64,000 bases of DNA from an uncultured Candidatus Saccharibacteria bacterium (GTDB lineage Bacteria; Patescibacteriota; Doudnabacteria; UBA920). This document shows positions 2,669 through 58,385 of this stretch, piece after piece. A program made the position numbers and the translations under genes. The DNA is taken from contig CAYGEJ010000002.1 of the NCBI GenBank assembly GCA_964348935.1, positions 3,540 to 67,539 on the forward strand, read 5' to 3'. The stretch's first letter is position 1. Each line of letters begins with the position of its first letter. Below the pieces are notes generated by a model. The model was not told the origin of the DNA. It saw only the letters and a program-made list of their open reading frames with translations, and ran no database searches.

Positions 2669-3355
2669 ATGATTGAAAGACTACAAAAATTTATTAGTAC
2701 GAGCGGAGTTGCCAGCAGAAGAAAAGCCGAAGAATTTATTAAGTCCGGCCAAGTAACTATAAATGGACGCAAAGCAAAATTGGGCGACAAGGTTAATCCG
2801 GAGACAGATACTGTAAAAGTCTACGGGAAACTTATAAAAGCGTCCGAGGAAAAAATTTATATTGCCCTTAACAAACCTAAAGGCTATGTAGTTAGTAAAA
2901 GCGACCCGAAGGGTCGAAAGACGGTTTTTGATTTGCTCCCTGAAGATTTAAAAGGAAAAGTTTGGAATATTGGCAGACTCGACTATGACACCGAAGGCTT
3001 ACTTCTTATGACCAATGACGGCGAACTCACCCAAGAACTTTCCCATCCAAAATACGAGCACGAAAAAGAATACGAAGTCACCACTCAGGAATCCCCTACC
3101 GACGGCATGCTAGAGCATTTAAGAACCGGCGTAGAAATAGCTACCGGAACTACTTATCCCGCCCAAGTAAAACTTCGCGACGGAAAAGTTAGAATAACTA
3201 TCCATGAAGGAAAAAAACGCCAGGTACGCAGAATGTTTTCTACAGTTGGCTTAACCGTTTCCAACTTAAAAAGAATTCGTATAAATAAATTACTCCTTCC
3301 CAAAGAACTCAACGTTGGAAATTTTAAACTTATAAAAAAAGAAGAAATTCTGTAA
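2669..3355 (+). CDS. rRNA pseudouridine synthase, RsuA/RluB family (S4 domain plus PseudoU_synth_2)
   Basis: S4-like N-terminus SGVASRRKAEEFIKSGQVTINGRKA and catalytic-region motif GRLDYDTEGLLLMTNDGEL. Confidence 0.85.
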   Translation: MIERLQKFISTSGVASRRKAEEFIKSGQVTINGRKAKLGDKVNPETDTVKVYGKLIKASEEKIYIALNKPKGYVVSKSDPKGRKTVFDLLPEDLKGKVWNIGRLDYDTEGLLLMTNDGELTQELSHPKYEHEKEYEVTTQESPTDGMLEHLRTGVEIATGTTYPAQVKLRDGKVRITIHEGKKRQVRRMFSTVGLTVSNLKRIRINKLLLPKELNVGNFKLIKKEEIL

Positions 3356-3365
3356 TTTCTGATTT

Positions 3366-4112
3366 ATGACTTTTAGAAAATATACCTTTATAATTACTAC
3401 CTTGGCGGTGATAGCTACTATCATCGCTTTGTTTTTAATTAAAAAACAATACCCAATTACAATAATAGAAATTCCTAAATATTATCACCCAGTCTCAGAA
3501 ATACCATTTCAAGATTCAAAATTCATTATTCCAGACTCTCTCCTGCTGTCCGCCCCCTTCACTCCCCAAGCCCCGACAGGAAACTGGGATATTCTTCACA
3601 ATGAAAATTGTGAAGAAGCCAGTAGTTTAATGGCAATGGCCTACTACATTACTAACTATAGAAATGTACAAAAATTAGATCCTATTTTTGTTGAATCTGA
3701 ACTTACCAAACTCACTGACTGGGAATTAAAAACTTTTGGTTATAACTTAGACATTACCAGCGAAGAAACCGCGAAAATGATTGAAGCCAACTATGGACTG
3801 AATACAAAAATTTTATACAACTATTCCGAAAATGATATAAAAAAAGAATTAACAGAAAATCGCTTGATATTGTTTCCAGCCAATGGCCAAATGCTAAATA
3901 ATCCAAACTACAAACAACCCGGTCCAATTTACCATATGGTGTTAATTCGGGGTTTTAATGAAACTGAATTTATTACCAATGACCCAGGAACCAGAAAAGG
4001 AATGAATTATAACTATCCTTTTACTGCACTTTACAAATCCAACGGCAACTGGAGTCATAAAAACAACAAAGTAGATTTAACTCAAAAAAATATTATAGTA
4101 GTTTGGAAATAA
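3366..4112 (+). CDS. Putative C39-like (papain-fold) cysteine peptidase domain protein with an N-terminal membrane anchor.
   Basis: N-terminal TM helix; candidate catalytic Cys in NCEEASSLMAMAYY and downstream His in IYHMVLIRGF, reminiscent of the Peptidase_C39_2 arrangement. Confidence 0.4.
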   Translation: MTFRKYTFIITTLAVIATIIALFLIKKQYPITIIEIPKYYHPVSEIPFQDSKFIIPDSLLLSAPFTPQAPTGNWDILHNENCEEASSLMAMAYYITNYRNVQKLDPIFVESELTKLTDWELKTFGYNLDITSEETAKMIEANYGLNTKILYNYSENDIKKELTENRLILFPANGQMLNNPNYKQPGPIYHMVLIRGFNETEFITNDPGTRKGMNYNYPFTALYKSNGNWSHKNNKVDLTQKNIIVVWK

Positions 4113-4173: not shown

Positions 4174-4974
4174 TTAGCGATAATGCAAATCCTTCGCCAA
4201 ACCCAACAATTGCAGTAGCTGAATAAAACGATGATTCGGGTCATATTCCCACCAAGCATTACCATGCCTCACGCTTCTCTGGTGCGCATGATGGTTATTA
4301 TGCCACCCTTCACCAAATGTCAGCAACGCCACCCACCAGTTATTGCGCGAGTCATCTTTCGTTTCGTGAGTGCGGTAACCCCACAGGTGCGTAGCCGAAT
4401 TCACCAGCCAAGTGGAGTGCCACCCGAGCACTACAGGTACAAACACCGCCCAACAGAATGCACCGAAGCCACCAAAACTCAAGACCAAAATTCCAAACAG
4501 GGCAATTGGTACCCATAGATATTTGTTCAGAAAGACATGGAACCTGTCCTTCATTAAATCTGGTGCCATCTTTTTCAGCAGTTTAGGGTCCCGATACTTA
4601 GGATCCGGATGAAGCATCCAATCCATATGCGCCCACCATCTTCCATCACGTGGAGTGTGAGGATCTAACCCCATTATTTCAGTAAACTTATGGTGCAACC
4701 TATGCCACACCACCCACCATATTGCCCCACCCTGCAGTGCCAAGTAACCGCACACAGTGAGTATGTACTCCACCCACTTAGGAGTCTTGTAACCCCGGTG
4801 AGTTAACAGACGGTGAAAGCCCGCTCCTATACCAGGGCAAAGACTGATGGCAAATACCACACCTGCCAAACTCAGCCCTTGAAAGCTTGGAAAGAAAATA
4901 ATTGCAACCACCATGCCGACATGGAAGATCGCGAAAGCAATCGCATTCTTCTTGGAAAGTTCGTATTTCATCAC
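4174..4974 (-). CDS. Membrane fatty-acid desaturase (delta-9 acyl-CoA/acyl-lipid desaturase family)
   Basis: Three histidine boxes, HRLLTH, HRLHH and HNNHH, with TM helices between them, as in the stearoyl-CoA desaturase/DesC family. Confidence 0.85.
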   Translation of the reverse strand: MMKYELSKKNAIAFAIFHVGMVVAIIFFPSFQGLSLAGVVFAISLCPGIGAGFHRLLTHRGYKTPKWVEYILTVCGYLALQGGAIWWVVWHRLHHKFTEIMGLDPHTPRDGRWWAHMDWMLHPDPKYRDPKLLKKMAPDLMKDRFHVFLNKYLWVPIALFGILVLSFGGFGAFCWAVFVPVVLGWHSTWLVNSATHLWGYRTHETKDDSRNNWWVALLTFGEGWHNNHHAHQRSVRHGNAWWEYDPNHRFIQLLQLLGLAKDLHYR

Positions 4975-5066
4975 ATCCTCCTACACACTATCTCAAATTA
5001 AGTATATGCAGAAAATTAAATTCCGCCAAATGTTTTAAACACATGGCGGAATTATTTTTACATTGA

Positions 5067-6818
5067 TTATTCTTCTCTTTCCCCTATTTGCTGTCTCCAC
5101 ATTGCATAGTACAAACCTTTTTGATCAAGAAGTTCTTGGTGCTTGCCACTTTCTGCCAGTTTGCCTTTTTCTAATACGTAAATTTTATCAGCATGCATAA
5201 TTGTCGAAAGCCTATGGGCAATAAGTACGGTAATCTGCTCAGTATTTTTAGAAAGAGACTTTATAGTGTCGGTAATTTGTAGTTCGGTTAAAGAATCCAA
5301 GCTTGAAGTCGCTTCGTCAAAAACTAGTAAGGTTGGTTTTCTAAGTAATGCCCTGGCAATAGACAAACGTTGTTTTTCCCCACCGGAAACCTTAACTCCA
5401 CCCTCGCCAATTACAGTGTCAAGCCCTAATGTAGCACGTTGCATTAAGCTGTCTGCCGCGGCTTGCTTCAAAGCTTTCCATAATTCTTCATCTGTTGCAT
5501 TTGGATTCACAAACTTTAAGTTATCCTTTATGCTACCAGCGAAAACTTGAGTGTCTTGAGTTACTAAACCAATTTGTTTTCTTAACTCATCCAAACTTAT
5601 ATCTTCTAACGACAAATTATTATACAAAACTTTCCCTTCATTGGGCCTATATAAAGCAACCAGTAGTTTTACCAAAGTGGTCTTACCACTACCGGAAGGC
5701 CCAACAAAAGCAACGGTTTCCCCACTAATAGCTTTAAACGAAACACTTGACAAGGCATTTCTGGAACCGCTCAAATGTTTAAATGTAGCAGAATCAAGAG
5801 CAATTTCTTTTAATTTACCTAAGTTTTTTGGATACTGAGCCTTTAACTCTTTTGGCCTGTCTAAGATGTCTCTAAAATTCTGCAAACTCGCCTGAGCTTC
5901 CCGATAAGAATTTATAACATTCCCCATTTCCTGCAAAGGCTGAAACAAAAAGAATGAATATATATAGAGTGAAAAAAATTGTCCGAGGGTAATAGTCCTC
6001 AAAAAAACTAAATATAGCATTACAAATAACATACTCACTCTTAAAGCGTTGACTAGCGTTCCTTGAATAAAACTCAAACTGCGAATATATTTGATTTTTT
6101 GCAATTCCAACTTTAATATTTCGCCAGTGGTATGATTCAAGCGACCAATTTCCTGGTCTGCCAAACCTAACGATTTAACCAATTCAATATTCCTTAAACT
6201 TTCGGTAGTAGATCCAGCTAAAGAAGCTGTCTGGGCAACTATCTTGGTCTGAATGGTTTTAATTTTCTTGCTTAAAAAAGTACTGGCAAAACCCAAAAGC
6301 GGAACCATGGAAATATAAACCACAGCCACAATCCAATTAGCCTGAAATGCGTAAATAATAACAAAAACAAAACCAATCAGTGTTGTAAACACAACATTCA
6401 CCATGGCAGTAATGAAATTCTGAACATTCAGTCTAACCTGTTGTAAAATACCTAACGTCTCACCGCTTCTTTGGTCTTCAAAAACCTGATACGGTAACTC
6501 CAAAGAGTGAGCTAATCCATCTGTATACATTTTTGCACCTAACCGTTGGGTGACAGTATTGACATAATAATCTTGGAAATTTTTTGCCACTCGGGACACA
6601 AAAGCTACCCCCATAGAAGCAAGGAGTAATAGTCCGGCTCCGTTTATAAATTGACTTTTTGTGTACTGCTCAAACTTAGTAACATAGTCATCGAGAACCA
6701 AACGAAATATATAAGGATCGAGTAAAGAAAATATTTGATTAATAGCAGCGAGCACTAATGCTAACGCTAACAATTTCCAGTAATGTTTTAAGTAACTTAA
6801 TAAAATTCTCATATGCAA
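5067..6818 (-). CDS. ABC exporter with fused permease and ATPase (MsbA/lipid A exporter-like)
   Basis: Six-TM N-terminal domain; Walker A GPSGSGKTT; ABC signature LSGGEKQRLSIARAL; Walker B LLVFDEATSSLD. Confidence 0.9.
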   Translation of the reverse strand: MHMRILLSYLKHYWKLLALALVLAAINQIFSLLDPYIFRLVLDDYVTKFEQYTKSQFINGAGLLLLASMGVAFVSRVAKNFQDYYVNTVTQRLGAKMYTDGLAHSLELPYQVFEDQRSGETLGILQQVRLNVQNFITAMVNVVFTTLIGFVFVIIYAFQANWIVAVVYISMVPLLGFASTFLSKKIKTIQTKIVAQTASLAGSTTESLRNIELVKSLGLADQEIGRLNHTTGEILKLELQKIKYIRSLSFIQGTLVNALRVSMLFVMLYLVFLRTITLGQFFSLYIYSFFLFQPLQEMGNVINSYREAQASLQNFRDILDRPKELKAQYPKNLGKLKEIALDSATFKHLSGSRNALSSVSFKAISGETVAFVGPSGSGKTTLVKLLVALYRPNEGKVLYNNLSLEDISLDELRKQIGLVTQDTQVFAGSIKDNLKFVNPNATDEELWKALKQAAADSLMQRATLGLDTVIGEGGVKVSGGEKQRLSIARALLRKPTLLVFDEATSSLDSLTELQITDTIKSLSKNTEQITVLIAHRLSTIMHADKIYVLEKGKLAESGKHQELLDQKGLYYAMWRQQIGEREE

Positions 6819-15788: not shown

Positions 15789-17045
15789 CTAGCCAGTACA
15801 ACGGGCGGAATTAGCTTTGGTGGTTAAGGTAATAGGATCATTAAGACTGCCGGGCAGACTTAAGTCTAAGTTCTCATTGGTAAAGTCTACATGCAAAAAG
15901 TTCTCCGGATCGAGGAAGGTGGTATTGTACAAACTTAAGTCTTCTTCCTGTTCATAACCTCGACTCTCTAGAACCAGACTCCTTACCACCAGGAGGTCAT
16001 TCATAGCTTCGTAGTTTTCGGTATTGGATAAAGAGTAAACCAGTCTCAGTTTAAAGCTGTTTAAATTATTTAGAATAGCAACTGGCAGGTTGTATTCCAG
16101 AATATGTTCTACAGATGTGGTAGCGTTAGGATTACTGGATATAGTTTCTAAACTTTTCCATACGGTAGAAGTAGAAGAATACTCTACCGAGAAAGTTCCG
16201 TCTGTAATCGGAAGTGAAGAAAGATTTAATTTCAAAATTAAGTTTTCTACCGAAGGCCAGTTCAAATGAGATTCAGTATTGTAACTAAAGTTAGAGTACT
16301 CCAGAATTGGAGCTGATATACGGTTGGTGGATTTTTGAATTTCTAAATTAGATGGCTGAGTTCCGGAAGAGGAACTTTCTAAGACTGGAGGAGGAACTTG
16401 AGCAGTTAGGTCTTCCAAGGCTTTGGCAATTTCCGGATTTAATTCTACGGACGGCGTTGAGGTGGAAGCAGATTCCACTTGAGGAGTGGAAGATGCAGAT
16501 GAATCATCCGATGCGGGAAAGGTGGTAATGACATCTACCTCAGGTTGAACCAACTCCGGAGTAGTTTCGGGGAGACTAATTGCTTCAACGGTTGGGGCGG
16601 GTTCTGGTGTCGAAGAATCTTGACTTAGAATTTCAGTCAATTCCACTTCGCCGGCCAAGGCAGACATTTCCTGTTCTGGCGCTTCCAAGATTTTAGGTTC
16701 GGTGGAAGTTGTGATAATAGTTTCTACCACTGCCGGCTCAGGGACAGATTCCAAAATTACCGATGGTGAAGTACTTGGCGTTTGGACAATTGCATTTAAC
16801 AAATTCAAAGCAGTGGGATGTTCAGACGTTCCGGTTAAAATGGAATCTGAATTTAACCATTCAAAACTTTCATAAGTTTCGTCTGTACTAACTACGGAAA
16901 CATGTTTGGGAGCTAGGGATTCAATCACTGCAACTGATTCAGGTGTAAGAGGTCTAAATGCAAAAGCAAACCCAGGGTGCATGAGCACTGACTGAGTCAG
17001 CAAGAAGGCTAATATTTTTTTGTAGAATTTGTTTTGCTTTCTCAC
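15789..17045 (-). CDS. Secreted Ser/Thr/Pro/Glu-rich surface protein (probably C-terminally truncated by a frameshift)
   Basis: Signal peptide, then about 250 aa of low-complexity S/T/P/E-rich linker, then a structured C-terminal part. Confidence 0.5.
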   Translation of the reverse strand: MRKQNKFYKKILAFLLTQSVLMHPGFAFAFRPLTPESVAVIESLAPKHVSVVSTDETYESFEWLNSDSILTGTSEHPTALNLLNAIVQTPSTSPSVILESVPEPAVVETIITTSTEPKILEAPEQEMSALAGEVELTEILSQDSSTPEPAPTVEAISLPETTPELVQPEVDVITTFPASDDSSASSTPQVESASTSTPSVELNPEIAKALEDLTAQVPPPVLESSSSGTQPSNLEIQKSTNRISAPILEYSNFSYNTESHLNWPSVENLILKLNLSSLPITDGTFSVEYSSTSTVWKSLETISSNPNATTSVEHILEYNLPVAILNNLNSFKLRLVYSLSNTENYEAMNDLLVVRSLVLESRGYEQEEDLSLYNTTFLDPENFLHVDFTNENLDLSLPGSLNDPITLTTKANSARCTG

Positions 17046-41190: not shown

Positions 41191-42057
41191 TTACTTTGAG
41201 TGAAAATACTTATTATCAATCCTTCTAAGAGTAAATTCGGAATTTTTATTTAAATTTTCAACCCTCTCTTCATTCCACTCCTGCCAGTTATCCCATTTCG
41301 CTGAAATAACTTTACCGGTTAATTTTCCCGAACATAAACTCAAAACGAGTTCAGCAGCTAACTCGGCTGAGTCTCCTCCGCTCTTCTTTTGTTGTAATGA
41401 TTTTTCATAAAATTCTTTACCTACTTTTTTTACACCGGCTTTTAATACTTTATCTAGGAACAAAGTATTAATTGCTCCTGGAGCTATAGCATTCACTTGA
41501 ATATTTTGATCTTCGAATTCCTTAGCTAAATTTTCTGTAAACCTTACTACCGCTGCTTTAGAAGTCGCATAGCAAGAAAAATTTGGAAAAGGCTGAACAG
41601 CCCCACCACCGGAAAGATTAATTATTTTGCCACTCTTCTTCTTTAACATTAAAGGTAATACTGCGTTGCATGAATAAGCAGTACCAAGTAAGTTAATATT
41701 CATTGCCTCTGCCCATAAAACCATATCGTTTGTTTCAAACCTCCCAATTGGTCCATAAACCCCAGCACAGTTTACCAGCACATCTATTCTTTTATACTTT
41801 TTATAAATTTCACTATAAATTTTTTTTAAAGTATTAAATTTAGAAACATCAGCTTTATAAATTTCGCAATACCCCAATTTCTGAATTTCTTTTTGAGCTT
41901 CTTTAAGTTTATTTATCTGTCTGCCTAAAATAACAACAACTGCCCCAGCTTTACTAAAACTTTTTGCCACCATAAAACCAATTCCACTGGCTCCGCCTGT
42001 AACAATTACAACTTTTTTGGTAAAATTATAAGTCATATTTTCCAATCCCCGTTCCAA
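41191..42057 (-). CDS. Short-chain dehydrogenase/reductase (SDR)
   Basis: TGGASGIG; NCAG; YxxxK (YATSKAA). Confidence 0.85.
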   Translation of the reverse strand: MERGLENMTYNFTKKVVIVTGGASGIGFMVAKSFSKAGAVVVILGRQINKLKEAQKEIQKLGYCEIYKADVSKFNTLKKIYSEIYKKYKRIDVLVNCAGVYGPIGRFETNDMVLWAEAMNINLLGTAYSCNAVLPLMLKKKSGKIINLSGGGAVQPFPNFSCYATSKAAVVRFTENLAKEFEDQNIQVNAIAPGAINTLFLDKVLKAGVKKVGKEFYEKSLQQKKSGGDSAELAAELVLSLCSGKLTGKVISAKWDNWQEWNEERVENLNKNSEFTLRRIDNKYFHSK

Positions 42058-43327
42058 AATAGTTAAAATTTAATGATTCTAAGTCATTTTTAGATAAAAT
42101 ATTTTTGGTATCAAATATATTTAACTGCTTCAAATTTTTACTAATTTTATTATAATCCAAATTTTTAAATTCCGGCCATTCGGTAATTATTACAACAGCA
42201 TCAGCTCCCATACTTGCCTCATAAGGATCGCTAAATAATTTTACAGGCAAAACCAGTTTTGGGTTGTCTAGCGATGGATCGAAACCATTCACCACAGCGC
42301 CCTTTTTGGTTAGCCAATTTGCAATCTCCAAAGCTAAAGATCTGCGTAAAGTGTTGGTTCCTGGTTTGTAGACCAAACCAAACATGACGATTTTCTTTCC
42401 TTTTAAATTCTTAAGCTGTCCAATAATTTTTTTATAAAATACTTCTTTTCGATTTTGGTTAATTTTATAAATAACAGTAATAAGGGGTAAGCTAACTTTA
42501 TTTACTTGTGCCAAGCCTTCCAAAACCCTCAAATCCCGTCCCAAAGTCCCCCCGGCAAAACCTAAGCCCGGTGCCAAAAACGCCTTTTGACCTATTCGAG
42601 TATCGCTTTTCATTCCTTTAACCACATCTACAATATTTGCTCCCAATTTTTCACTTAAGTCAGAAATTTGATTTATAAAGCTTACGGACATTGCCAAAAA
42701 ACTATTCACTCCATGCTTCACAAATTCCGCACTTTCCAAAGACATAAATAAAATTGGATTTTTATAAAAACTATAAAAATCTCGCATTCTTTCTTCTGCA
42801 ACTTTTGAACTTACTCCAATAATTTGCCTGTCGGCATTTAAGTAAGTATCTATAGCCTGGCTGAGTCTTAAATTTTCCGGGTTATAAACTACTTCCAAAC
42901 CTTTAATTTTTTTCTTTAACTTATTAAAAATTTTCCTGGAAGTTCCGGCTGGAATCTGGCTCATAATTATTACCGTGGAATTTGTACTTGCGTACTTACC
43001 TATCGCTCTTACAGCTTTCTCAATTACAAATAAATTCGGCTTGTCGTTGTCTCCTACTGGAGTATCGTAACCAATTACAATAAACTGACTACCCTTGAGT
43101 TTGCTAAAGTCCGAAGTAAAACTCAATTGCTTGAGTTTTAGCATTGTTTGAGTAAGCTCTGTAAGCCCAGCTTCCTGTATGGGCAGAATTCCTTGCTGTA
43201 GTTTCTCAATATCTTTTTTATCAAAATCGAACCCTGTAACATTAAAGCCTGAACTTGCTAAACTGGCTGCGACACTACAACCCAAATGCCACAATCCAAT
43301 TACTGCAACATTTTTTTTATTTTCCAT
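42026..43327 (-). CDS. UDP-sugar 6-dehydrogenase (Ugd/WbpA/WecC family nucleotide-sugar dehydrogenase)
   Basis: VAVIGLWHLGCSVAAS NAD-binding motif, GLGFAGGTLGRD catalytic-Cys region, and about 433 aa. Confidence 0.85.
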   Translation of the reverse strand: MENKKNVAVIGLWHLGCSVAASLASSGFNVTGFDFDKKDIEKLQQGILPIQEAGLTELTQTMLKLKQLSFTSDFSKLKGSQFIVIGYDTPVGDNDKPNLFVIEKAVRAIGKYASTNSTVIIMSQIPAGTSRKIFNKLKKKIKGLEVVYNPENLRLSQAIDTYLNADRQIIGVSSKVAEERMRDFYSFYKNPILFMSLESAEFVKHGVNSFLAMSVSFINQISDLSEKLGANIVDVVKGMKSDTRIGQKAFLAPGLGFAGGTLGRDLRVLEGLAQVNKVSLPLITVIYKINQNRKEVFYKKIIGQLKNLKGKKIVMFGLVYKPGTNTLRRSLALEIANWLTKKGAVVNGFDPSLDNPKLVLPVKLFSDPYEASMGADAVVIITEWPEFKNLDYNKISKNLKQLNIFDTKNILSKNDLESLNFNYFGTGIGKYDL

Positions 43328-44324
43328 TTGTGTGCTGATATAAATTTAACAAAACCTTACTTCCTTCAAAATCATAGTTAAACGGTAATTCGGTTAAGCC
43401 TTTTTCCGAAAGAACCCTTCTAAATTCTTTTCGATTATTGGGAACGAAAAATAAAAATAAACCGCCGCCGCCACTACCCATAATCTTACCTCCTTCAGCT
43501 CCATTTTGCATCGCCAAATCATAAACCTCATCCATCCAGGGATCGGAAATTTTTGCAGACATGGTTTTTTTAGCTTGCCAGTGTTTGTGCATTAACTTAC
43601 CAAAATTACTGCAATCCCCATTTTCAAATTCAGAAAGAATTTGCACTCCTATATTTTTTATTTCTAGCAAAGCCTTTTCTACCTGGCTTTCACTTATAGA
43701 AGCATTTTCACTCTGTTCCTTTAAAATATCTGTGGTGTCATGTTGCTTGTGGGTGTAAAAAAGCACACACTTATACTCGAGCTCTTCTATTAAGTCTGAA
43801 CTTATGTTTGCCTGTCTAGATTTAACCACACCGTCCCTGTCTATATTTAATACAGTAAACCCACCTAAAGAGGCTAAGTACTGGTCCTGTTTACCAATTG
43901 GTTTTTTTAAAGTTTCTAATTCTATTTTGCATGCTAAATCCGCCAACTCTTCCCGGGAAATAACATCTCTATTTAGTTCATACAAGGCTTTAAGTAACCC
44001 TATTAAATACGCAGACGAAGACCCCATTCCGGTTCCAGCAGGAAGGTCTGCAAAAGACGAAATCTCAATTTGGTCATTTATCCCAGCATGCCTTAAAGCT
44101 TCTCTGGCAAGTTCGTGCTTTAATTCCTCTAACTTAACAACAGTTTCAGATGTAGAATATTTTACTCTAATTAATTTATCTACAAGGGGTTTATTTAAGG
44201 CAACGTAAATATACTTATTAATGCTCGCACTAAAAATAAAACCGCCATGTTTTTTGTAAAAATTTGGTAAGTCTGTTCCTCCCCCGCCCAAAGGCATACG
44301 GAATGGTGTTCGTGTAATTATCAT
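43317..44324 (-). CDS. GHMP-family sugar kinase (D-glycero-alpha-D-manno-heptose 7-phosphate kinase HddA-like)
   Basis: MIITRTPFRMPLGGGGTDLPNFYKKHGG N-terminus and GHMP motif PAGTGMGSSSA. Confidence 0.7.
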   Translation of the reverse strand: MIITRTPFRMPLGGGGTDLPNFYKKHGGFIFSASINKYIYVALNKPLVDKLIRVKYSTSETVVKLEELKHELAREALRHAGINDQIEISSFADLPAGTGMGSSSAYLIGLLKALYELNRDVISREELADLACKIELETLKKPIGKQDQYLASLGGFTVLNIDRDGVVKSRQANISSDLIEELEYKCVLFYTHKQHDTTDILKEQSENASISESQVEKALLEIKNIGVQILSEFENGDCSNFGKLMHKHWQAKKTMSAKISDPWMDEVYDLAMQNGAEGGKIMGSGGGGLFLFFVPNNRKEFRRVLSEKGLTELPFNYDFEGSKVLLNLYQHTNGK

Positions 44325-45085
44325 TATTGTTTAAAATACTTATTAGCTTTTTCTAAACTTTCTAAATTATCTATACCAAATAGAGCTTCATGTGGCTCAA
44401 TTACATACCCTTTTAGTTTTTTTAAATTATTTAGCATTTCCGGAAAAACATGCTTGCCAAAATCGTAAAAGGTTTTTGCAGGAATATAGTTTAATACTTC
44501 TGGAGTTAACTTATAAATACCACCATTTACATAATTTATTTCCGGCTTATGCTGGGCTTCGTAAAAACCTACAACATTATTTTGTTCGTCTATTTCCACT
44601 ACACCTCCTGCAATTCCACTGTTTGCACTTTTTGTCCTGTCGAATAACAATAAACTTCCAACCTCGTCTTTTCCTAAAGTTTGTTTTATAAATTTACTAA
44701 AATCTAAATCAAATAAATTATCTCCATACACCACCAGGAACTCTTCATTATTTTTAAAATGATGTTCTACTTTTTTTAAACCGCCTGCGGTTCCTAATAT
44801 TTCCGGTTCATGGGAATATTCGATATTTACACCAAAATCACTACCGTCTCCAAAATAACTAGTAACTGCTTCTGGGAAATAATGTGTATTAATAACTAGC
44901 TCTGTAACTCCCGCATTTTTTAACTGGGTAATTGTTCGTTCTAAAATTTTCTTCCCCGCAACTTCCACCATAACTTTTGGCTGGCTTTCTGTTAACGGAC
45001 GAAGTCTGGTTCCAAGCCCAGCAGCCAATACAAAGGCTTTTCCGCCAAAGGCCGATCCCGCTTCGCGGGACATATTATTTACCAT
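44324..45085 (-). CDS. Sugar-1-phosphate nucleotidyltransferase (heptose-1-P guanylyltransferase HddC-like)
   Basis: AFVLAAGLGTRLRPLTESQPKVMV NTP-transferase motif; about 250 aa. Confidence 0.75.
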   Translation of the reverse strand: MVNNMSREAGSAFGGKAFVLAAGLGTRLRPLTESQPKVMVEVAGKKILERTITQLKNAGVTELVINTHYFPEAVTSYFGDGSDFGVNIEYSHEPEILGTAGGLKKVEHHFKNNEEFLVVYGDNLFDLDFSKFIKQTLGKDEVGSLLLFDRTKSANSGIAGGVVEIDEQNNVVGFYEAQHKPEINYVNGGIYKLTPEVLNYIPAKTFYDFGKHVFPEMLNNLKKLKGYVIEPHEALFGIDNLESLEKANKYFKQ

Positions 45086-45087
45086 AT

Positions 45088-46083
45088 TTATAATTTCTCC
45101 TTAACAACATATTTTTTTATATACTCAATACTTCCACCCATACCCTGCTCCAAACTAACTTTAGGCTTCCAACCTAAAGCACTGGCTTTGGTTATGTCTG
45201 CTAAATTCTCCTGCGCCTCTCCAACTTGGTCTGGCCTAAATTCTGGTTCAATATTACTTCCTAAAATATTTTTTATAGTTTGAAAAATATCCAAAATAGA
45301 AATATTTTTTCCTGTACCGAGGTTATAAATTTCGCCATTAGTACGATCATCGTTCATAGCCAAAATATGAAAATCGTTTAAATCGTCTACATGAATAAAA
45401 TCTCGGCGTTTACTGCCATTACCATAAATAATAGGACTTTCGCCTTTTAACATTTTTATTATAAAAGCGCTAAAAACTGGTGGAATACTACGTCGATAAT
45501 CTTGCCTTGGTCCGTAAACATTAAAATAGCGTAGCGCAGTGGTCTTGAGTCCGTAAAAACGTTCGAATGCCTCGCCAAAATATTTAGTTGCCATTTTACT
45601 CACTGCATAAAAAGTTTCCGGATGTTCGTCTGTTTCCGGTGTTGGTAAAATTTTACTACCCTCATATATTGCAGAAGTTTCAGCATAAATTACTTTACGC
45701 ACCTTTGCCTTAGCAGAGGCTAAAAATACATTTACAGTTCCAGTTACATTTATATCTGCCGTACCCAACGGGTCAGTTTGACAATCTGGAATGCTGTTTT
45801 TTGCAGCAAAATGAAAAACTGTATCTACCCCTTCAAATATCGGATAAATTTCCGGACTTCGAATATCTAACTGATGAAATTTAACCCCTGTTGGGATTTG
45901 CTCTTTGACTCCATAAGCTAAATTATCTATACCTATTACTTCGTACCCTTCCCCAATCAATCGATCTGCCAAATTACTTCCAATAAATCCAGCGACACCT
46001 GTAATTAAAACTTTTTTATTAGCCATATCTTTACAAAATTTTAACAAGTAATTGTACTGAATTTTACCATAAAAATGCCTCAA
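45088..46083 (-). CDS. NAD-dependent nucleotide-sugar epimerase/dehydratase (candidate GDP-heptose 4,6-dehydratase)
   Basis: VLITGVAGFIGSNLADRL, YxxxK in YAVSKMATKY, 331 aa; located within the heptose gene set. Confidence 0.8.
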   Translation of the reverse strand: MRHFYGKIQYNYLLKFCKDMANKKVLITGVAGFIGSNLADRLIGEGYEVIGIDNLAYGVKEQIPTGVKFHQLDIRSPEIYPIFEGVDTVFHFAAKNSIPDCQTDPLGTADINVTGTVNVFLASAKAKVRKVIYAETSAIYEGSKILPTPETDEHPETFYAVSKMATKYFGEAFERFYGLKTTALRYFNVYGPRQDYRRSIPPVFSAFIIKMLKGESPIIYGNGSKRRDFIHVDDLNDFHILAMNDDRTNGEIYNLGTGKNISILDIFQTIKNILGSNIEPEFRPDQVGEAQENLADITKASALGWKPKVSLEQGMGGSIEYIKKYVVKEKL

Positions 46084-46096
46084 TAGGCAATAAAAA

Positions 46097-46636
46097 TTAA
46101 CTTAAATACTTAGGAATTTGCCCTAGAGATTCCACCTGAAAATCAAAGCCGGTAACTTCTATATTATATTTTGTCTTGACTAAAATACTTTTTATTCCAG
46201 CGTTCATGGCGCAGTCTATATCTTTCTGGCTATCACCCACCAAATAACTTTCTTCAAGATTTATCCCATAATCTTTTACTGCATCTAACACTAGTCCAAT
46301 TTTTGGTTTTCTACAATTACAATTATCCTTGTTGTCATGAGGGCAAACATAAATAGCGTTTATAGTTGGGATGTGTATTTTTAAAAAATCATGCATTTGG
46401 TTTAGTTCTTCCCATTCCATTTTGTTTCTTGCAATATCTGGTTGGTTGGTAATAATAATATTTAAAAAACCCAAAACTTTGGTTTTTGCAAGCACCTCTG
46501 CAACACCCTCAAATAAGTTAAAATCCTGATATTTTAATGGCGAGACATTTTGTTGGCCATCTTGCCTAAGAGCAACAACATGGTTTAAAACTCCGTCCCT
46601 GTCCCAAAATATCGCTTTGTTGTTAAGTTGTGTCAT
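46097..46636 (-). CDS. gmhB: D,D-heptose 1,7-bisphosphate phosphatase GmhB (HAD-IIIA)
   Basis: IFWDRDGVLN HAD motif I; Cys cluster CPHDNKDNCNCRKP; GDS motif III. Confidence 0.8.
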   Translation of the reverse strand: MTQLNNKAIFWDRDGVLNHVVALRQDGQQNVSPLKYQDFNLFEGVAEVLAKTKVLGFLNIIITNQPDIARNKMEWEELNQMHDFLKIHIPTINAIYVCPHDNKDNCNCRKPKIGLVLDAVKDYGINLEESYLVGDSQKDIDCAMNAGIKSILVKTKYNIEVTGFDFQVESLGQIPKYLS

Positions 46637-46637
46637 T

Positions 46638-47870
46638 TTAATTCGGATAAAATTTTCTTAAAACTTTATAGAGTGATGGGAGTAAATAAGTAACTTGTTT
46701 ACCCACAAAAAAGGGAAAAGCTAATAAATTATTCCAATATAAAATTAAATAACCTTTAACATTTCCCAAAGTAGAATTGCCATAATATTTCGAGCAAGCT
46801 TCTCTAAAATCTGCTATTATTTTTTTTGATTGATTTTCAATTCCAAAAATTTCTAAAGCTCTAGCTCTTGCTAATTTACCCATATGCCGAATTTCATTTT
46901 TGTGTTCTAGCATCCACTCCATATTTTTAAAGTATTGGTCAACATTATCCACTTCGGCCCATAAGGAATACGAGGCATCTAGAATATCAAAATGGTCATT
47001 ATGAAAGTGGGACTTGTGAGTTAAGATTGGGTCTCCTGCAAGCATGGCTTCGCCAATTGCCATCCCTACGGTTTCTCCGTCTTTGCGAGCATGAGCAAGG
47101 ACGTCTATTTCATTATAAAATTTTCCTAAACCTTCAGTTTCGGTAATTGCATTTCTATACTCAATATTCTTCACTCCTAACTTTTCTGCCAAAGCAAGCC
47201 ACATTGGTGGTGGGTTAACCACAATATATTTAACTTTACTTGTATATTTGTCTTCTAATTTTTTAAATGCTTTTAGCGCAATAGGATCAAAAATATTGTC
47301 GTCCGATCTACCAATTCTACCAAATAACAACTGTTCACCAATAGGTTTTTTTTGTAAATACTTTTCTTCAAAATCTTCTAAAGGATTAAAAAAAAGTTTT
47401 ACACCACTAACTCCCCTAGCCTTTATTCTTTCAGCATTTTCTTTTCCTGAAACATAAACCAGTGGTACATTTCCATTGTTAGCAAAGTGTCCGAATGGTG
47501 ATATTAATACCAAAGGAATACTTGCAGGAATAGTATTTATTGGGAATTGATAATGCGCGTAGACAGTTGTATAAACACATTGAATATTATACTGTTTAAG
47601 AATTCTTAAAATACCTGGCATCATACCAAGTAATTTATGAGGCTCCTTCAATTGTTTTCTTTTAAAATTAAACTCGACTATATTAACACCAGATTTTACC
47701 AAATCCCCTGCTAAAGCAGAGTCACTAACGGGACCACCTGCAAAAAATACATTAAAATCCTTACTCAAAATTTTTGCCATTTGTCTTAATAGCTTTTGAG
47801 TACTGCCGTAAAAATAACCTTGTTCATCAAAAATTAATATATTATTTTTGGTCATTTTTAGAACTTTCAA
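46638..47870 (-). CDS. Putative GT-B (GT4-like) glycosyltransferase
   Basis: C-terminal E..G.AIGEAM..G.P.I GT4 motif. Confidence 0.45.
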   Translation of the reverse strand: MKVLKMTKNNILIFDEQGYFYGSTQKLLRQMAKILSKDFNVFFAGGPVSDSALAGDLVKSGVNIVEFNFKRKQLKEPHKLLGMMPGILRILKQYNIQCVYTTVYAHYQFPINTIPASIPLVLISPFGHFANNGNVPLVYVSGKENAERIKARGVSGVKLFFNPLEDFEEKYLQKKPIGEQLLFGRIGRSDDNIFDPIALKAFKKLEDKYTSKVKYIVVNPPPMWLALAEKLGVKNIEYRNAITETEGLGKFYNEIDVLAHARKDGETVGMAIGEAMLAGDPILTHKSHFHNDHFDILDASYSLWAEVDNVDQYFKNMEWMLEHKNEIRHMGKLARARALEIFGIENQSKKIIADFREACSKYYGNSTLGNVKGYLILYWNNLLAFPFFVGKQVTYLLPSLYKVLRKFYPN

Positions 47871-48729: not shown

Positions 48730-50028
48730 TTAGTAACTAGACGGGGTTTGATTTTGGTATTTTTGTGTCTCAGAATAAAGCAAGCCTTTTTGTAACAAAA
48801 ACTCTCTAACTATTTTAGTTAAATAATCTATCATATCGTCGTTAAGACCATGATGAGCTGCAACCAAAAAAGTATTTTTCATAACCATATCTGACCCAGC
48901 AAGCTCACCTGAGACTTTAATTCCGTACTTATTATTTTTATAGGCGGGATGCCTTAAAATATTACCAGCAAACAATACCCTAGTTTGAATATGGTTGGTT
49001 TCTAAAAATCTTAACAATTCTTTTCTAACAATTCCACTTTCGGGACGAATTGTCACAGGAAACGCTAACCAATATACTTCTGCACCGGGAATTTCTTCAG
49101 GGACAATAAAAAACTGTTCGAATTGTTTAAAGAAACGGTAAATTTTTTCAAAATTACTTCTACGAATTTTATTAAATTCAGCAAGTCGATTTAACTGCAC
49201 AAGCCCAAAAGCAGCCTGCATTTCTACAGCTTTCATATTGTAACCAACTTCTAAAAAAGCAAACTTTCCGTCGTAATCTATATTGTCTAGTTTAAAGTTG
49301 TATCGTTCTTCAAAGGCACCTTCGTAATGTTCGTAATGTTCAGGAAGAGCTCTTCCCCAGTCTCTTAGTATTTTGGCTCGTGTAATCATTTCAAAATCAT
49401 CACACATTATCATTCCACCACCACCGCCTGCTGTAATATTATGAGAAGCATAAAAACTTGTAGTTGTTATATCTGCCCAACTACCACTTGGCCTGCCTAA
49501 ATACTTTCCGCCAATACTATCACAACTATCTTCAATTAATTTTAATTTGTATTTATCACAGATAGCCCTCAATCTGGCCATGTCGTTAATGTTTCCCATA
49601 ATTTGCGGAAGCATTATGGCAACAGTTCTAAAAGTAATAGCTGCTTCAATTTTATCTATATCAATATTGTAATTTCCGGGTTTGGAGTCTACTAATACCG
49701 GGATTAAACCTTTTTGTACAATTGGAGCAATAGTTGTACCAAAAGTCATAGCAGGAGTAATTACTTCACTACCTTTAGGAAAATTTAAAAGTTCAAAGGC
49801 TAACAAGTTGGCAGCAGAACCGGAATTAACAAACAAGCCGTATTTTTTTCCAAAAATCTCGGCAACTCTTTTTTCAAATTCAATTGTGTATTTACCGTTC
49901 CCTAACCAATCTTCATTCAAAGCCTTCACCACTGCTTGAATTTCTTCTTGTCCATAAACAGATTTGGTGTAATATATCCAATCTTCGCCTGGTTTAAATT
50001 TCTGTTCTGGGTTTAATAAATAGTTCAT
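48730..50028 (-). CDS. DegT/DnrJ/EryC1/StrS-family PLP-dependent sugar aminotransferase or dehydratase (long RfbH/E1-like form)
   Basis: FVNSGSAANLLA, the PLP-Lys region, and a length of about 432 aa similar to CDP-4-keto-6-deoxyglucose 3-dehydratase-type members. Confidence 0.8.
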   Translation of the reverse strand: MNYLLNPEQKFKPGEDWIYYTKSVYGQEEIQAVVKALNEDWLGNGKYTIEFEKRVAEIFGKKYGLFVNSGSAANLLAFELLNFPKGSEVITPAMTFGTTIAPIVQKGLIPVLVDSKPGNYNIDIDKIEAAITFRTVAIMLPQIMGNINDMARLRAICDKYKLKLIEDSCDSIGGKYLGRPSGSWADITTTSFYASHNITAGGGGGMIMCDDFEMITRAKILRDWGRALPEHYEHYEGAFEERYNFKLDNIDYDGKFAFLEVGYNMKAVEMQAAFGLVQLNRLAEFNKIRRSNFEKIYRFFKQFEQFFIVPEEIPGAEVYWLAFPVTIRPESGIVRKELLRFLETNHIQTRVLFAGNILRHPAYKNNKYGIKVSGELAGSDMVMKNTFLVAAHHGLNDDMIDYLTKIVREFLLQKGLLYSETQKYQNQTPSSY

Positions 50029-50161
50029 ATTTACGCCTAAAATAATGATTTTCTTGAATTAGTATACAATTTTCTACCCTTTTTGTCTATATCTAAAAAC
50101 TCTAGACAAAAGCTCTATTTCTAAGTACAATATTAGGTCATCTCAAAAGGAGGATGATACC

Positions 50162-50776
50162 ATGAGTGACCAAGGAATTGGATTAACCCCCGCTGAGCAA
50201 AACCAGCTCATCTATCTCCTAGGCAGATTGCAGCAACCGTGGCCTCGGGAAGTTTACAATGCCTTCGCAAGCATCATCTGCTTCACCGCAATTGAGGTGG
50301 CGCTGTTGCGGATGCACGAGGGGCGCCTGCAAATCCTGCTTACCGAAAGAACTGGTGACGAATTCTACGCCGGGAAGTTTCATTCCCCCGGAAGCATGCT
50401 TCGGGCCACTGACGTAGTGAAAACTGACGGGCTCGACCCTTCGGCTTGCACCTACGAAAATGCGATTAAAAGGGTGCTGGTGCAAGACTTGGGATTCCCA
50501 GAAATGATGGTTGAAGAGGATTGGACAATGTATTTTAACTCCCTCCCTCTGGCCATCCCTGGCTTCCCCTACAACACTCCCCGGGGACCGGAAAACTGCC
50601 TGCTGATAATTGGCGAACTTGCTGAAGTTCCGGCACAGGGAGCTTATGTCGACATTGAAAAAGTACTCAACAATCCAGTGGACTTTTTTATGATCCCCCA
50701 CAACCTCCTAGTCATCCGGCGGGCGAAATGGGCATTTAACCTACTCTACCAACTTCGGAATATTGAAGGGTGGTAA
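50162..50776 (+). CDS. GC-rich (apparently acquired) gene: Nudix-fold protein with a degenerate Nudix box
   Basis: GC is far higher than the flanks. The Nudix-fold alignment is VALLRMHEGRLQILLTER...AGKFHSPGSML...YENAIKRVLVQDLGF, with RE..EE replaced by KR..QD. It has its own SD (AAAGGAGGA) and a GC-rich terminator. Confidence 0.55.
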   Translation: MSDQGIGLTPAEQNQLIYLLGRLQQPWPREVYNAFASIICFTAIEVALLRMHEGRLQILLTERTGDEFYAGKFHSPGSMLRATDVVKTDGLDPSACTYENAIKRVLVQDLGFPEMMVEEDWTMYFNSLPLAIPGFPYNTPRGPENCLLIIGELAEVPAQGAYVDIEKVLNNPVDFFMIPHNLLVIRRAKWAFNLLYQLRNIEGW

Positions 50777-50787
50777 ACTCAAACAAC

Positions 50788-50826
50788 ACCGCCGCGACTC
50801 AACACGAGACGCGGCGGTAATTTTTT
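50788..50826 (+). terminator. GC-rich rho-independent terminator
   Basis: accgccgcg ... cgcggcggt followed by TTTTTT. Confidence 0.6.
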
Positions 50827-50830
50827 ATAT

Positions 50831-51661
50831 TTAATTATAGAATGTATTATATAATAGTTTGTCTACTTTATTTTTAGCCACTTCACCTTTTGCAATTCTT
50901 GCAATTTTGTTTATCCAATCTTGGATAAAGGTATTTACCAATGGCTTAACTATTACGGTTTTATATTTAAACTTATTTATATTTTCTAAAACTTTTACAA
51001 ACTCCTGTGCTATATCTTCCACATAAGCTAATTGAACTTTAACATTATTTGTAACTTTAAATTCTTTCCAAGTCTTTATATTTTCAATAATTTGAGGAGT
51101 TAACCGAAGTGGTTTAACATAAGTATCCCCTATGCCAAAAGCAGTAGGGTACTTTAATAAAACAACTGGCAATTCTTTGTTAGTTAAGTACGGACTTATA
51201 AAAAGGTCACTAACAGTTTTAGAAAAGTCGTAAGGCTTTGCCCATAAATTTTCTATTTCTTCTTCTGTGATATTAGAGCTTACCGCCCTGCTACTAGATG
51301 CCAGTACCAAGCCTTTTAAATTCTTCTGTCCTTTTACTGCTTCTACTATATTAAAGGTTGAGGCTACATTGCCCATTAAAGCTTCCTGCATATTTTTTGG
51401 TCTAAGCACTCCAGCTAAATGAACAATATAATCAAAATTATTTTTTACTAATATTTTTTTAGTTTCTGTGAGACTATTTAAATTACAAAATAATATTTTA
51501 GTTTTTTTATTTAAACTGGATTTGTAAAAATTATTTTCTCGATTTTCATTTCTAACAATACAGAATAAATCCGCACCTTGGCTTAAAAGTGCCTTCGCTA
51601 CATAACCACCAATAAAACCTGTTGCCCCAGTTAATAATACTTTTCTACCTTTTAGTGACAT
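50831..51661 (-). CDS. NAD(P)-binding epimerase/dehydratase-family protein (short, atypical)
   Basis: VLLTGATGFIGGYVAKAL Rossmann motif; 276 aa. Confidence 0.65.
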   Translation of the reverse strand: MSLKGRKVLLTGATGFIGGYVAKALLSQGADLFCIVRNENRENNFYKSSLNKKTKILFCNLNSLTETKKILVKNNFDYIVHLAGVLRPKNMQEALMGNVASTFNIVEAVKGQKNLKGLVLASSSRAVSSNITEEEIENLWAKPYDFSKTVSDLFISPYLTNKELPVVLLKYPTAFGIGDTYVKPLRLTPQIIENIKTWKEFKVTNNVKVQLAYVEDIAQEFVKVLENINKFKYKTVIVKPLVNTFIQDWINKIARIAKGEVAKNKVDKLLYNTFYN

Positions 51662-57482: not shown

Positions 57483-58385
57483 ATGATCAAGACATCTGAA
57501 GTTAAAAAAATGCTGTCAGCAGTTCTTGCTTCGATGACTGTTTTGCGGGCTTACCAGCTCGGGGAACGGATCCTACCAGCAGAAGGAAGCGACATCAAAC
57601 CACTTGACCAGAGCCTATTAAGCCGGGCAGATCGTGAGAGTGGCGAGGTGGCAATGAAAATTTTGTCCAAACTCCCTCTCAAGTACGACATCAAACCCGA
57701 AGACACCAAAGGCCGAACAACTCCAGGCGCTCAGAATGTGGTGATGTATGACAATGCGGACGGCACTCGCCCGCTAGTCAACGGACTCAAAACCTCCACA
57801 GTCATTTTGGCCGTCTACGACCTCAAGAAAAAAAAGGTCGTATTTGTAATTATTGGCGAACCCATTTCCGGAGACATTTGGTATGGTGGAGACTCTACAC
57901 CACCAATGCGGTGCAATAAGTATAAAAGAGGTGATAAGCCAAAACCCATTCAGGTCAACCAACATCCTCTCGACGGCCAAGCTACGGTGTTCATTGACTA
58001 TGTCAACAAGATTGGCTTTGCCCGCAAAACCAAAGACGGATCGAGGCAGATCTTTAACGGCGAAGAAAGCAAGGAAATCTGGAATACCGTATACGATCTT
58101 GGTGTCAACATCCTTATGCCCGGTTCCAACGGCCAGCACCAAGCAATGGTTGCCAATGGAGGTGAAAAGACAGTCGCCGGCTTAACCCTTGCAATGGGTG
58201 GTCCTTGGGACGCTGCCGGAGTCTTCCTGGTTATTCTTGCAGGTGGCTACGCCCGGGCCTTCAAACGATCTGAGAATGGTTTTAGCGAGCAGGATCCGCT
58301 GGACCCCACGAGCTACGATATTGCCGTCTACGGCAACTGCAAAGAAGCGGTGGACAAATTCTGTTCCGCTTGTCGATTTGCATAA
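57483..58385 (+). CDS. GC-rich (apparently acquired) inositol-monophosphatase/FIG-superfamily phosphatase-like protein
   Basis: DNADGTRPLVNG matches the IMPase DPIDGT motif and GGPWDAAGVFLVILAGG matches WDxAAG. GC content is far above the flanks. Own SD GGGAGGA. Confidence 0.65.
   Translation: MIKTSEVKKMLSAVLASMTVLRAYQLGERILPAEGSDIKPLDQSLLSRADRESGEVAMKILSKLPLKYDIKPEDTKGRTTPGAQNVVMYDNADGTRPLVNGLKTSTVILAVYDLKKKKVVFVIIGEPISGDIWYGGDSTPPMRCNKYKRGDKPKPIQVNQHPLDGQATVFIDYVNKIGFARKTKDGSRQIFNGEESKEIWNTVYDLGVNILMPGSNGQHQAMVANGGEKTVAGLTLAMGGPWDAAGVFLVILAGGYARAFKRSENGFSEQDPLDPTSYDIAVYGNCKEAVDKFCSACRFA

Follow-up and report, generated by a model that had tools for sequence, protein, structure and literature searches.

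A compositionally foreign Nudix-fold gene in a repeatedly filled slot of a Patescibacteria glycan locus

The DNA analysed here (the window) is a stretch of 64,000 nucleotides from an uncultured Candidatus Saccharibacteria bacterium, placed in the Doudnabacteria (Patescibacteriota) by GTDB (contig CAYGEJ010000002.1, positions 3,540 to 67,539). A single gene of high G+C (GC) content, located at 50162..50776 on the + strand, stands out in it. The gene encodes a divergent Nudix-fold protein of 204 amino acids, termed the Nudix-like protein below, an annotation based on the open reading frame (ORF), its family, an AlphaFold2 (AF2) model built with the family alignment, Foldseek and composition. The picture favoured here, with moderate confidence, is that of a horizontally gained gene whose product is a GDP-sugar hydrolase of the surrounding glycan locus; the chemistry, a metal-dependent hydrolysis, is proposed with less confidence than the picture as a whole. 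According to this picture, an AT-rich, probably ultra-small bacterium of the candidate phyla radiation (CPR) would have acquired the gene recently from a relative of about 50% GC. It would have landed in a conserved slot 5' of, and divergent from, the RfbH-type 3-dehydratase gene of a GDP-(deoxy)heptose-type pathway, and in related genomes the gene in this slot would have been gained, replaced, degraded or lost time and again.

The GC content of the island was 0.547 at 50150-50599, against 0.28-0.36 in the flanks (300-bp windows). In 60-bp windows, it rose from 0.33 to 0.50 at 50160, which is the start codon, and dropped from 0.53 to 0.15 at 50820, which is the end of the terminator. The GC excess with sharp edges described in the first-pass annotation, which was made from the sequence alone, was therefore reproduced. 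Among 3170 sliding windows of 615 bp, the island had a z of 4.2, equalled only by four windows overlapping it. The Nudix-like ORF ranked first of the 67 ORFs in the window both in GC (0.514 vs about 0.35, z 3.9) and in GC at third codon positions (GC3; 0.585 vs 0.286 for the host, z 4.5). Per 1000 codons, CTG, CGG, CCC and ATC were used 34, 34, 24.5 and 34 times in the gene and 6, 1.7, 3.5 and 4.8 times in the host, respectively, while TTA was used 4.9 and 52.7 times. The earlier statement that the GC-rich codons of the gene are almost absent elsewhere was thus largely right, with the exception of GGC, which is common enough in host genes (14.7 vs 10.9). The content of Gly, Ala, Arg and Pro (GARP) in the protein was 0.265, compared with 0.190 ± 0.028 in host proteins, and that of Phe, Tyr, Met, Ile, Asn and Lys (FYMINK) was 0.270, compared with 0.349 ± 0.039. 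The adjoining genes were host-like in composition. The Nudix-like gene is compositionally foreign, down to its amino-acid usage. Moreover, its GC3 equalled the value expected from its own GC at first codon positions (GC1; 0.584), as read from the empirical GC1-GC3 line over the backgrounds of 21 loci (r = 0.94). A GC3 at equilibrium for GC1, with no amelioration, supports horizontal gain.

The island consists of one intact gene equipped with a promoter-like site, a ribosome-binding site and a terminator of its own. A Shine-Dalgarno sequence, AGGAGG (50148..50153, +), was read directly 8 nt before the ATG. A putative promoter-like site, TAGACA-17 nt-TACAAT (50103..50131, +), reached 10/12 matches in a consensus scan and sits in the AT-rich spacer of 133 nt. 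A second putative site found by the scan, TAGACA-17 nt-TATACT (50061..50089, −), points in the divergent direction towards the RfbH-type gene, and the two −35 hexamers make up a 9-bp inverted repeat (I8, 50081-50089 / 50103-50111). Downstream, an intrinsic-terminator hairpin with a U-tract (50788..50826, +) was obtained by RNA folding and as inverted repeat I1. The hairpin proper (50788-50818) has a stem of 9+3 bp with an A/A mismatch and a 5-nt loop, followed by the U-tract at 50821-50826; its free energy was −22.6 kcal/mol (z −7.1), and 0 of 200 shuffled sequences were equally stable. The Nudix-like gene and a short-chain dehydrogenase/reductase (SDR) gene converge on this hairpin, which may terminate transcription in both directions. 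Between 42026 and 53954, the neighbours are all glycan or nucleotide-sugar genes and all on the opposite strand. The strong Shine-Dalgarno sequence, the GC-rich terminator and the orientation against the flanking operons noted in the first-pass annotation are thus all present.

The inverted repeat of the spacer is perfect over its 9 bp (TTTTGTCTA-N13-TAGACAAAA, 50081-50111) and covers both divergent −35 hexamers. GTCTA...TAGAC motifs also occur 5' of RfbH in two related loci (L017 and L018). The repeat could be an operator, or merely the consequence of two back-to-back promoters.

The possibility was considered that the island is an artefact or no gene at all, namely a chimera of the assembly, a non-coding element of high GC, or a stretch whose real gene is an antisense ORF of 160 aa (50219-50701, −). 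GC-rich DNA does yield long ORFs in several frames, and the antisense open stretch of 162 codons exceeded the mean of 91 in codon-shuffled sequences (p ~0.013). However, the identical arrangement was present in two more independent assemblies from two sequencing runs (L001 and L002) in addition to the NCBI contig, so that an assembly chimera is excluded. The sense ORF is part of a family of 148 members with conserved motifs and a confident fold. The antisense ORF was rejected as a real gene, since neither its frame nor its length is kept in the homologues, whose antisense open stretches span 56-132 codons with a varying best frame; its length is explained by the scarcity of TTA, CTA and TCA codons in the GC-rich gene. 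No match to a tRNA or an Rfam structured RNA was found within the island. The chance that the gene is artefactual is accordingly judged to be close to nil.

The first-pass annotation had called for database searches for the family and the donor lineage. A family was found, and a donor was not: an exhaustive HMMER search returned 148 relatives, of which the best was 39% identical to the Nudix-like protein, and nothing above 39% was found among 1.8 billion representatives. A word-index search of 5.8 billion clusters with the protein retrieved only the protein itself. The same search with a 67-sequence profile gave mainly short Saccharibacteria copies, and with a subfamily profile it gave three proteins. 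For the family alignment, the AF2 input and the column counts given below, 67 of the relatives were used. The family signature (alignment A1) was VLLxxRPxxD..W.G..HSPG[ST]xxRxxD...AxxR[IVL]xxxE[LIF]G...RGxE...P...H. Pfam PF00293 (NUDIX) was matched by 23 of the 67 at E <= 0.01 (best 4.4e-7), the Nudix-like protein lying below the threshold of this sequence family. Furthermore, the family profile matched the solved Nudix domains 2fml (7e-5), 5bs6 of AraR (2e-4) and 3gz8 of NrtR (4e-4).

The AF2 model built with the 67-sequence alignment had a pLDDT (predicted local distance difference test) of 93.1 and a pTM (predicted TM-score) of 0.87; from the single sequence, the pLDDT was 37.5 and the model was unusable. 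In the model, two N-terminal helices precede a Nudix core, which is followed by a long C-terminal helix. Foldseek gave 203 matches in the PDB at E <= 1e-3, and the best 50 listed were all of Nudix fold, with the NrtR Nudix domain 3gz8 at the top (E 7e-7). At the level of the fold, an alpha/beta/alpha domain of about 130 residues, the protein belongs to the Nudix superfamily (Pfam clan CL0261), and the Nudix fold proposed in the first-pass annotation is upheld by the model, the Foldseek matches and the PF00293 matches of the relatives. Judged by model and alignment, the protein is a real Nudix-fold, single-domain member of an uncurated family. This family is a Nudix subfamily, uncurated so far, which combines an N-terminal helical extension with a reduced Nudix box like that of GDP-mannose mannosyl hydrolase (GDPMH). 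A phage or defence origin was also considered and rejected. No relative was found in viral contigs, PHROG gave no match, and PADLOC gave weak matches to the candidate family PDC-S07 for 5 of the 67 relatives and none for the Nudix-like protein.

The box of the window copy reads G77...D84...R104-V-L-V-Q-D109-L-G111-F and lacks the three helix glutamates of the canonical box, GX5EX7REUXEEXGU. The first-pass annotation had described a change from RE..EE to KR..QD. The box is indeed non-canonical, but the register was off by one, as the box arginine is R104 and the motif is RV..QD. That annotation had also held the catalytic glutamates to be lost in this gene. In the family, R104 was present in 67/67 sequences, position 105 after it was acidic in 0/67, the first glutamate of the EE pair was variable, and the last box glutamate (position 109) was kept in 65/67. 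The alignment thus presents the reduced box as an ancestral signature of the whole family, with no loss specific to the window gene. Moreover, of 17 polar or glycine positions conserved across the family, the window copy retains 16, a point in favour of selection on its function. The family residues present in it are E45, R63, D66, H74, G77, R81, D84, R104 and G111, as well as R141, G142, E144, P172 and H180, the histidine at position 180 being semi-conserved (44/67).

The family core was aligned by hhalign with GDPMH, whose reference sequence was matched to PDB 1RYA (probability 65%, E 6e-5, core only). In this alignment, R63 corresponds to R37, D84 to the glutamate of GX5E, R104 to R65 and E109 to E70. 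The family thus has the reduced helix of the GDPMH type, in which only Arg65 and Glu70 remain, and the window copy has it with a conservative D109. GDP-sugar glycosyl hydrolases are active despite having lost key box residues, and such losses arose more than once (PMC5389931). As GDPMH is active with the same retained residues, the reduced box by itself is no argument for an inactive protein or for the regulatory role that had been deduced from it.

The Nudix-like gene lies 5' of a gene for an RfbH/E1-type NDP-4-keto-6-deoxy-sugar 3-dehydratase of DegT fold (48730..50028, −; Pfam PF01041, NCBIfam PRK15407). This neighbour matched PRK15407 with E 3.8e-117 and 392 bits, below the cut-off of 423, and histidine replaces the lysine that binds pyridoxal phosphate (PLP). 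Related loci from genomes and metagenomes were gathered with the RfbH neighbour as the anchor, the family alignments being too diverse. It is the conserved anchor of the slot, with 70-84% identity in L012, L014-L018 and L020. Five Patescibacteria genomes (three Saccharibacteria, one Doudnabacteria and one unclassified) carried an RfbH 70-75% identical to that of the window, and in 5/5 a family member was located directly 5' of it. The slot was filled in all six related loci with a readable upstream region (L012, L014, L015, L016, L017 and L018).

Short copies of 154-160 aa, encoded on the RfbH strand with host-like composition and 51-82% identical to one another, were found in L015, L017, L018, L024 and L025. 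In L014, L016, L017 and L023, the copy beside RfbH was GC-rich and on the opposite strand, and L025 had such a copy (P0020) about 4 kb downstream of RfbH. The GC of the gene and of the rest of the locus was 0.514 vs 0.349 in the window, 0.502 vs 0.389 in L014, 0.479 vs 0.406 in L016, 0.525 vs 0.348 in L017, 0.493 vs 0.400 in L023 (truncated) and 0.513-0.523 vs 0.424 in L025, the last copy having an in-frame GC3 of 0.577. The window gene is therefore not an arbitrary one-off insertion but occupies a conserved slot that is repeatedly filled. The first-pass annotation had named orthologues of identical composition at this position throughout the lineage as evidence against an insertion, and superficially such copies exist. 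However, the GC-rich opposite-strand copies were only 26-50% identical to anything, whereas the flanking RfbH genes were 70-84% identical.

The comparison of syntenic loci, none of them from a close relative of the window organism itself, gave a mixed answer, since absences from L020 and L018 speak for insertion and the filled slots in L012 and L014-L018 speak against an arbitrary event. Between L014 and the window, synteny extended over seven genes at 54-79% identity, and the Nudix-like copies were 35% identical. The closest cassette, L020 (RfbH 84%), had no Nudix-like gene, and its upstream SDR gene ended 18 nt before RfbH. L017 and L018 were collinear at 83-87% nucleotide identity and differed by a clean indel of 695 bp, the extra DNA of L017 being a GC-rich ORF plus a hairpin. 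This insert was flanked by AAAAATAT, with a single AAATAT in L018; microhomology could equally explain the repeat. Conserved residues were lost in the GC-rich copies of L016 and L017, and those of the window and L014 were intact. The slot beside RfbH shows gain, divergence, decay and loss. The low identity of the copies compared with RfbH, the empty slot of L020 and the L017/L018 indel point to repeated gain and turnover, not to vertical inheritance.

Some further features of the slot were observed. In L023 (99-443, −), the divergent GC-rich copy beside RfbH ends after about 95 family residues and looks like what is left of a similar insert in decay. Next to the indel, about 105 nt with the RfbH promoter region and first codons (5915-6020) were 99-100% identical between L017 and L018; recombination or strong constraint may account for this tract. 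In addition, a predicted membrane protein of 127 aa from outside the family is encoded at 3506-3889 (−) of L025 and 2689-3072 (−) of L030 with a GC3 of 0.555 vs 0.42, and the RfbH gene from which it diverges is more distant (51-53% identical). Small genes of unusual composition other than family members can thus occupy the slot as well.

With regard to the source of the gene, the relatives in the mid-GC genomes L012, L035 and L036 were matched to their hosts in composition, and P0006 and P0008 were host-like in AT-richer genomes. High GC is thus no inherent property of the clade, and among the closest relatives of the anomalous copies are the composition-matched ones in L012, L035 and L036. 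Moreover, the other anomalous copies showed no GC3 decay either. These results favour a recent horizontal gain from genomes of about 47-53% GC, and the donors were probably other Patescibacteria with the same cassette. The RfbH-type protein and its GT2 and GT1 glycosyltransferase partners were 70-84%, 50-67% and 30-63% identical, respectively, across Saccharibacteria, Doudnabacteria and unclassified Patescibacteria; the RfbH cassette seems to be shared across classes yet matched to the composition of each host.

All relatives with usable flanks were located in a nucleotide-sugar locus with ManC/PMM, rml or RfbH genes. For instance, in metagenome-assembled genomes of Saccharibacteria, P0168 was directly 3' of ManC and PMM, and P0171 was directly 3' of ManC. 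P0152 was found among ManC, PGM and rml genes together with further NUDIX genes, P0006 was divergent from an NTP transferase gene with a GHMP kinase close by, P0008 was 5' of rml genes, and P0011 adjoined a dTDP-sugar isomerase. P0007 was divergent from an RfbH/DegT-type gene 72% identical to that of the window, followed by a GT2 gene with 50% identity. Members of this family regularly accompany nucleotide-sugar and surface-glycan genes, for the most part in Patescibacteria (CPR). A position beside GDP-sugar synthesis genes in a glycan locus, as in GDPMH, was thus observed for the relatives and for the window locus, and the analogy with Gmm drawn in the first-pass annotation is reasonable, as relatives follow ManC/PMM or adjoin NDP-sugar genes.

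The P0152 locus deserves a separate description. P0152 itself (L007, 8001-9110) is a double-length family member of 369 aa, and a second family copy (4489-5019) and two or three canonical NUDIX genes lie near it among ManC, PGM and rml. At least four Nudix genes are possible in one Patescibacteria glycan locus. In L033, a partial ORF (3-482, +) with a GC of 0.606 and a GC3 of 0.794 on a contig of 39.5% GC, not a family member, lies directly 5' of a host-like family member and rml genes.

In the window, the SDR epimerase/reductase gene convergent with the Nudix-like gene is located at 50831..51661 (−; Pfam PF01370, weak NCBIfam match), and the remaining downstream operon extends over 42026..47870 (−; Pfam and NCBIfam). 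This operon encodes a GT1 glycosyltransferase, a GmhB-type heptose bisphosphate phosphatase, an SDR dehydratase/epimerase, a guanylyltransferase-like NTP transferase, an HddA-like heptose kinase and an NDP-sugar dehydrogenase. Together with the RfbH-type 3-dehydratase, the set matches the published enzymes for GDP-3,6-dideoxy-heptose (PMC10440746). By this analogy, the operon fits a GDP-heptose-derived deoxy-sugar pathway, and a GDP-linked sugar would therefore be a likely local metabolite. The Nudix-like protein is proposed to be a divalent-metal-dependent hydrolase of a GDP-linked sugar, either a precursor of the pathway or a stalled 4-keto intermediate. Catalysis would use the reduced Nudix helix with R104 and one carboxylate (D109; Glu in the relatives), together with R63, R81, D84, R141 and E144. 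Like GDPMH, the protein would trim, regulate or clean the pool of activated sugar from which the glycan is made.

GDPMH (Gmm/NudD/WcaH, 1RYA) attacks its substrate at C1 of the sugar with a histidine (His124) as the general base and releases GDP and the free sugar. It is, like the family, a small single-domain Nudix protein encoded in glycan loci near GDP-sugar synthesis genes. Its helix, R-L-T-M-A-E-L-G, resembles the R-[IVL]-x3-E-[LIF]-G of the family, and R37/R63 and the GX5E Glu/Asp align. The family differs in its additional two-helix N-terminal extension and long C-terminal helix, and the window copy has Asp for Glu. The canonical Nudix NDP-sugar pyrophosphatases, acting on ADP-ribose, GDP-mannose or UDP-sugars, share the fold and likely the substrate class, and L007 and L008 are examples of Patescibacteria glycan loci in which canonical NUDIX genes are found together with family members. 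However, of the three box glutamates with which these enzymes perform multi-metal catalysis at phosphorus, two are absent from the Nudix-like protein.

Several findings weigh against the favoured picture. Taken alone, the Nudix-like protein had no Pfam match even at E <= 10, no NCBIfam match, PRK15434 (the GDPMH model) included, and no PDB match by phmmer. The window copy was the sole sequence of the 67 with Asp at position 109. The specific kinship with GDPMH was weak, as seen in the hhalign probability given above, in PRK15434 being matched by only 2 of the 67 relatives (E 2.4e-4, far below the cut-off), and in 1RYA falling outside the best 50 Foldseek matches. The best matches in both sequence and structure were ligand-sensing Nudix domains of the NrtR/AraR type. 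No close relative that could represent the donor was found in the 1.8 billion representatives or in the word searches, which sits uneasily with a very recent transfer. The flanking proteins of the window were also singletons at 90% identity, and the source community is therefore poorly sampled. Finally, neither a mobility gene nor a tRNA marked the island in the window, and the repeats flanking it were short and at chance level. The recent horizontal insertion proposed in the first-pass annotation thus stands on the foreign composition and the lack of GC3 decay, while mobility signatures and a donor did not come to light.

The matches to NrtR and AraR suggest a non-catalytic sensor, whose Nudix core would bind a nucleotide-sugar or sugar and modulate a partner protein of the glycan pathway without hydrolysis. 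The top profile and structure matches were to types that bind ADP-ribose (NrtR) or arabinose (AraR), two of the three box glutamates are missing family-wide with the third replaced by Asp in the window copy, and the gene would be transcribed separately and divergently from an operon that it might control. The domains of NrtR and AraR (3GZ8, 3GZ5, 5BS6, 2FML), which bind ADP-ribose or a sugar, also resemble the family in their degenerate box and in the (D)PRG motif that follows the Nudix helix. They belong, however, to transcription factors with a C-terminal winged-helix DNA-binding domain, and the Nudix-like protein, with 204 aa and flanking helices only, has no DNA-binding or effector domain. 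The TM-scores were 0.4-0.5 at 13-18% identity, and the PDB profile matches covered the Nudix part only. Non-enzymatic Nudix proteins are an established class, but their non-catalytic domains are typically found within multidomain proteins (PMC5389931). Furthermore, the invariant Arg, the near-invariant helix carboxylate and the Arg, Asp, Glu and His residues are typical of a metal- and diphosphate-binding site, and the same reduced box supports catalysis in GDPMH. A sensor is thus considered unlikely, and the reading as a GDP-sugar hydrolase is preferred.

In at least five lineages (host GC 0.35-0.43), the slot holds GC-rich opposite-strand members. This recurrence would also suit an old resident, that is, ancient and fast-evolving members of the cassette whose GC-richness is actively maintained. 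It could be due to selection on codons or mRNA structure that sets expression, or to a recombination hot spot with GC-biased gene conversion. The deep mutual divergence of the copies (26-50%), the lack of a near-identical donor for any of them in very large collections and the absence of GC3 decay in all of them agree with this explanation. It accounts poorly for other results. The amino-acid composition is shifted too, beyond synonymous sites, the genes adjoining the putative hot spot are host-like, and the gene is missing from L020, the closest cassette, and, in comparison with L017, from L018. In addition, the copies of L012, L035 and L036 are matched to their hosts, and P0006 and P0008 are host-like in AT-richer genomes. 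The degenerate or truncated state of some anomalous copies (L016, L017 and L023) fits turnover better than strong maintained selection. Long residence with maintained GC is therefore regarded as improbable, and horizontal gain remains the preferred account.

A single island of this kind is a fairly ordinary horizontal acquisition; what is unusual is that unameliorated, mutually divergent copies recur at one slot. One idea is that one-sided homology anchored in the conserved 5' end of RfbH might explain the repeated use of the slot. It is also conceivable, though doubtful, that the GC-rich copies are an undescribed small exchangeable cassette, an ORF plus hairpin of one hypervariable Nudix-like family, or that their GC is maintained. 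Such a cassette would be delivered repeatedly to a preferred slot beside RfbH or a resident short copy and would then decay and be replaced, perhaps driven by conflict over the cell-surface glycan. The delivery would be site-preferring, for example through RfbH-anchored one-sided homology. An integron cassette as the nature of the ORF-plus-hairpin unit was rejected on a by-eye rather than systematic look, as the hairpins resemble ordinary terminators and no integrase was among the scanned genes. Mosaic O-antigen and capsule loci and the single-gene genomic islets known as morons are similar in that a self-contained opposite-strand gene of foreign composition is polymorphic in a hypervariable glycan locus. 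Classical O-antigen islands, however, are usually below the genome GC and contain several genes, whereas here one gene of higher GC was found. The presence of the same family at the same slot across lineages, with no phage or mobile-element link found, is a further difference from morons and O-antigen islands.

Other GC-rich genes were observed in the window. A fatty-acid desaturase gene (4174-4974, −; GC 0.483, GC3 0.528) and an inositol-monophosphatase-like (IMPase-like) gene (57483-58385, +; GC 0.497, GC3 0.532) are single-gene GC islands with GARP-rich amino-acid usage and equilibrium GC1/GC3, and they also look like unameliorated imports. In L016, an IMPase-like ORF (398-1273, +) had a GC of 0.529 vs 0.41 and lay about 4.7 kb from the RfbH cassette; its similarity to the IMPase-like island of the window was weak and at the motif level (E = 0.006). 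The IMPase-like genes may be a second family recurring as a GC-anomalous gene near such loci. Finally, an ORF of 418 aa without a Pfam family (15789-17045, −) was GC-richer in its 5' part (16400-17000), at about 0.45, than the remainder of the window.

Nudix proteins are among the hardest enzymes for function assignment. Through these results, an uncurated Nudix family would gain a concrete and testable assignment, that of a GDP-sugar hydrolase with a GDPMH-like one-carboxylate helix, because of its consistent association with nucleotide-sugar genes in CPR bacteria. To our knowledge, the surface glycans of CPR bacteria have hardly been studied, although these bacteria live attached to other microbial cells. 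If its function is indeed to trim the activated-sugar pool, the gene product would be a CPR counterpart of Gmm, the physiological role of which is still debated. Should the copies form an exchangeable cassette, or should their GC be maintained, the actual finding would be their recurrence at one slot, in five lineages or more, and not the single island of the window. The slot beside RfbH offers a compact system in which the uptake and turnover of foreign genes can be followed in streamlined, AT-rich episymbiont genomes.

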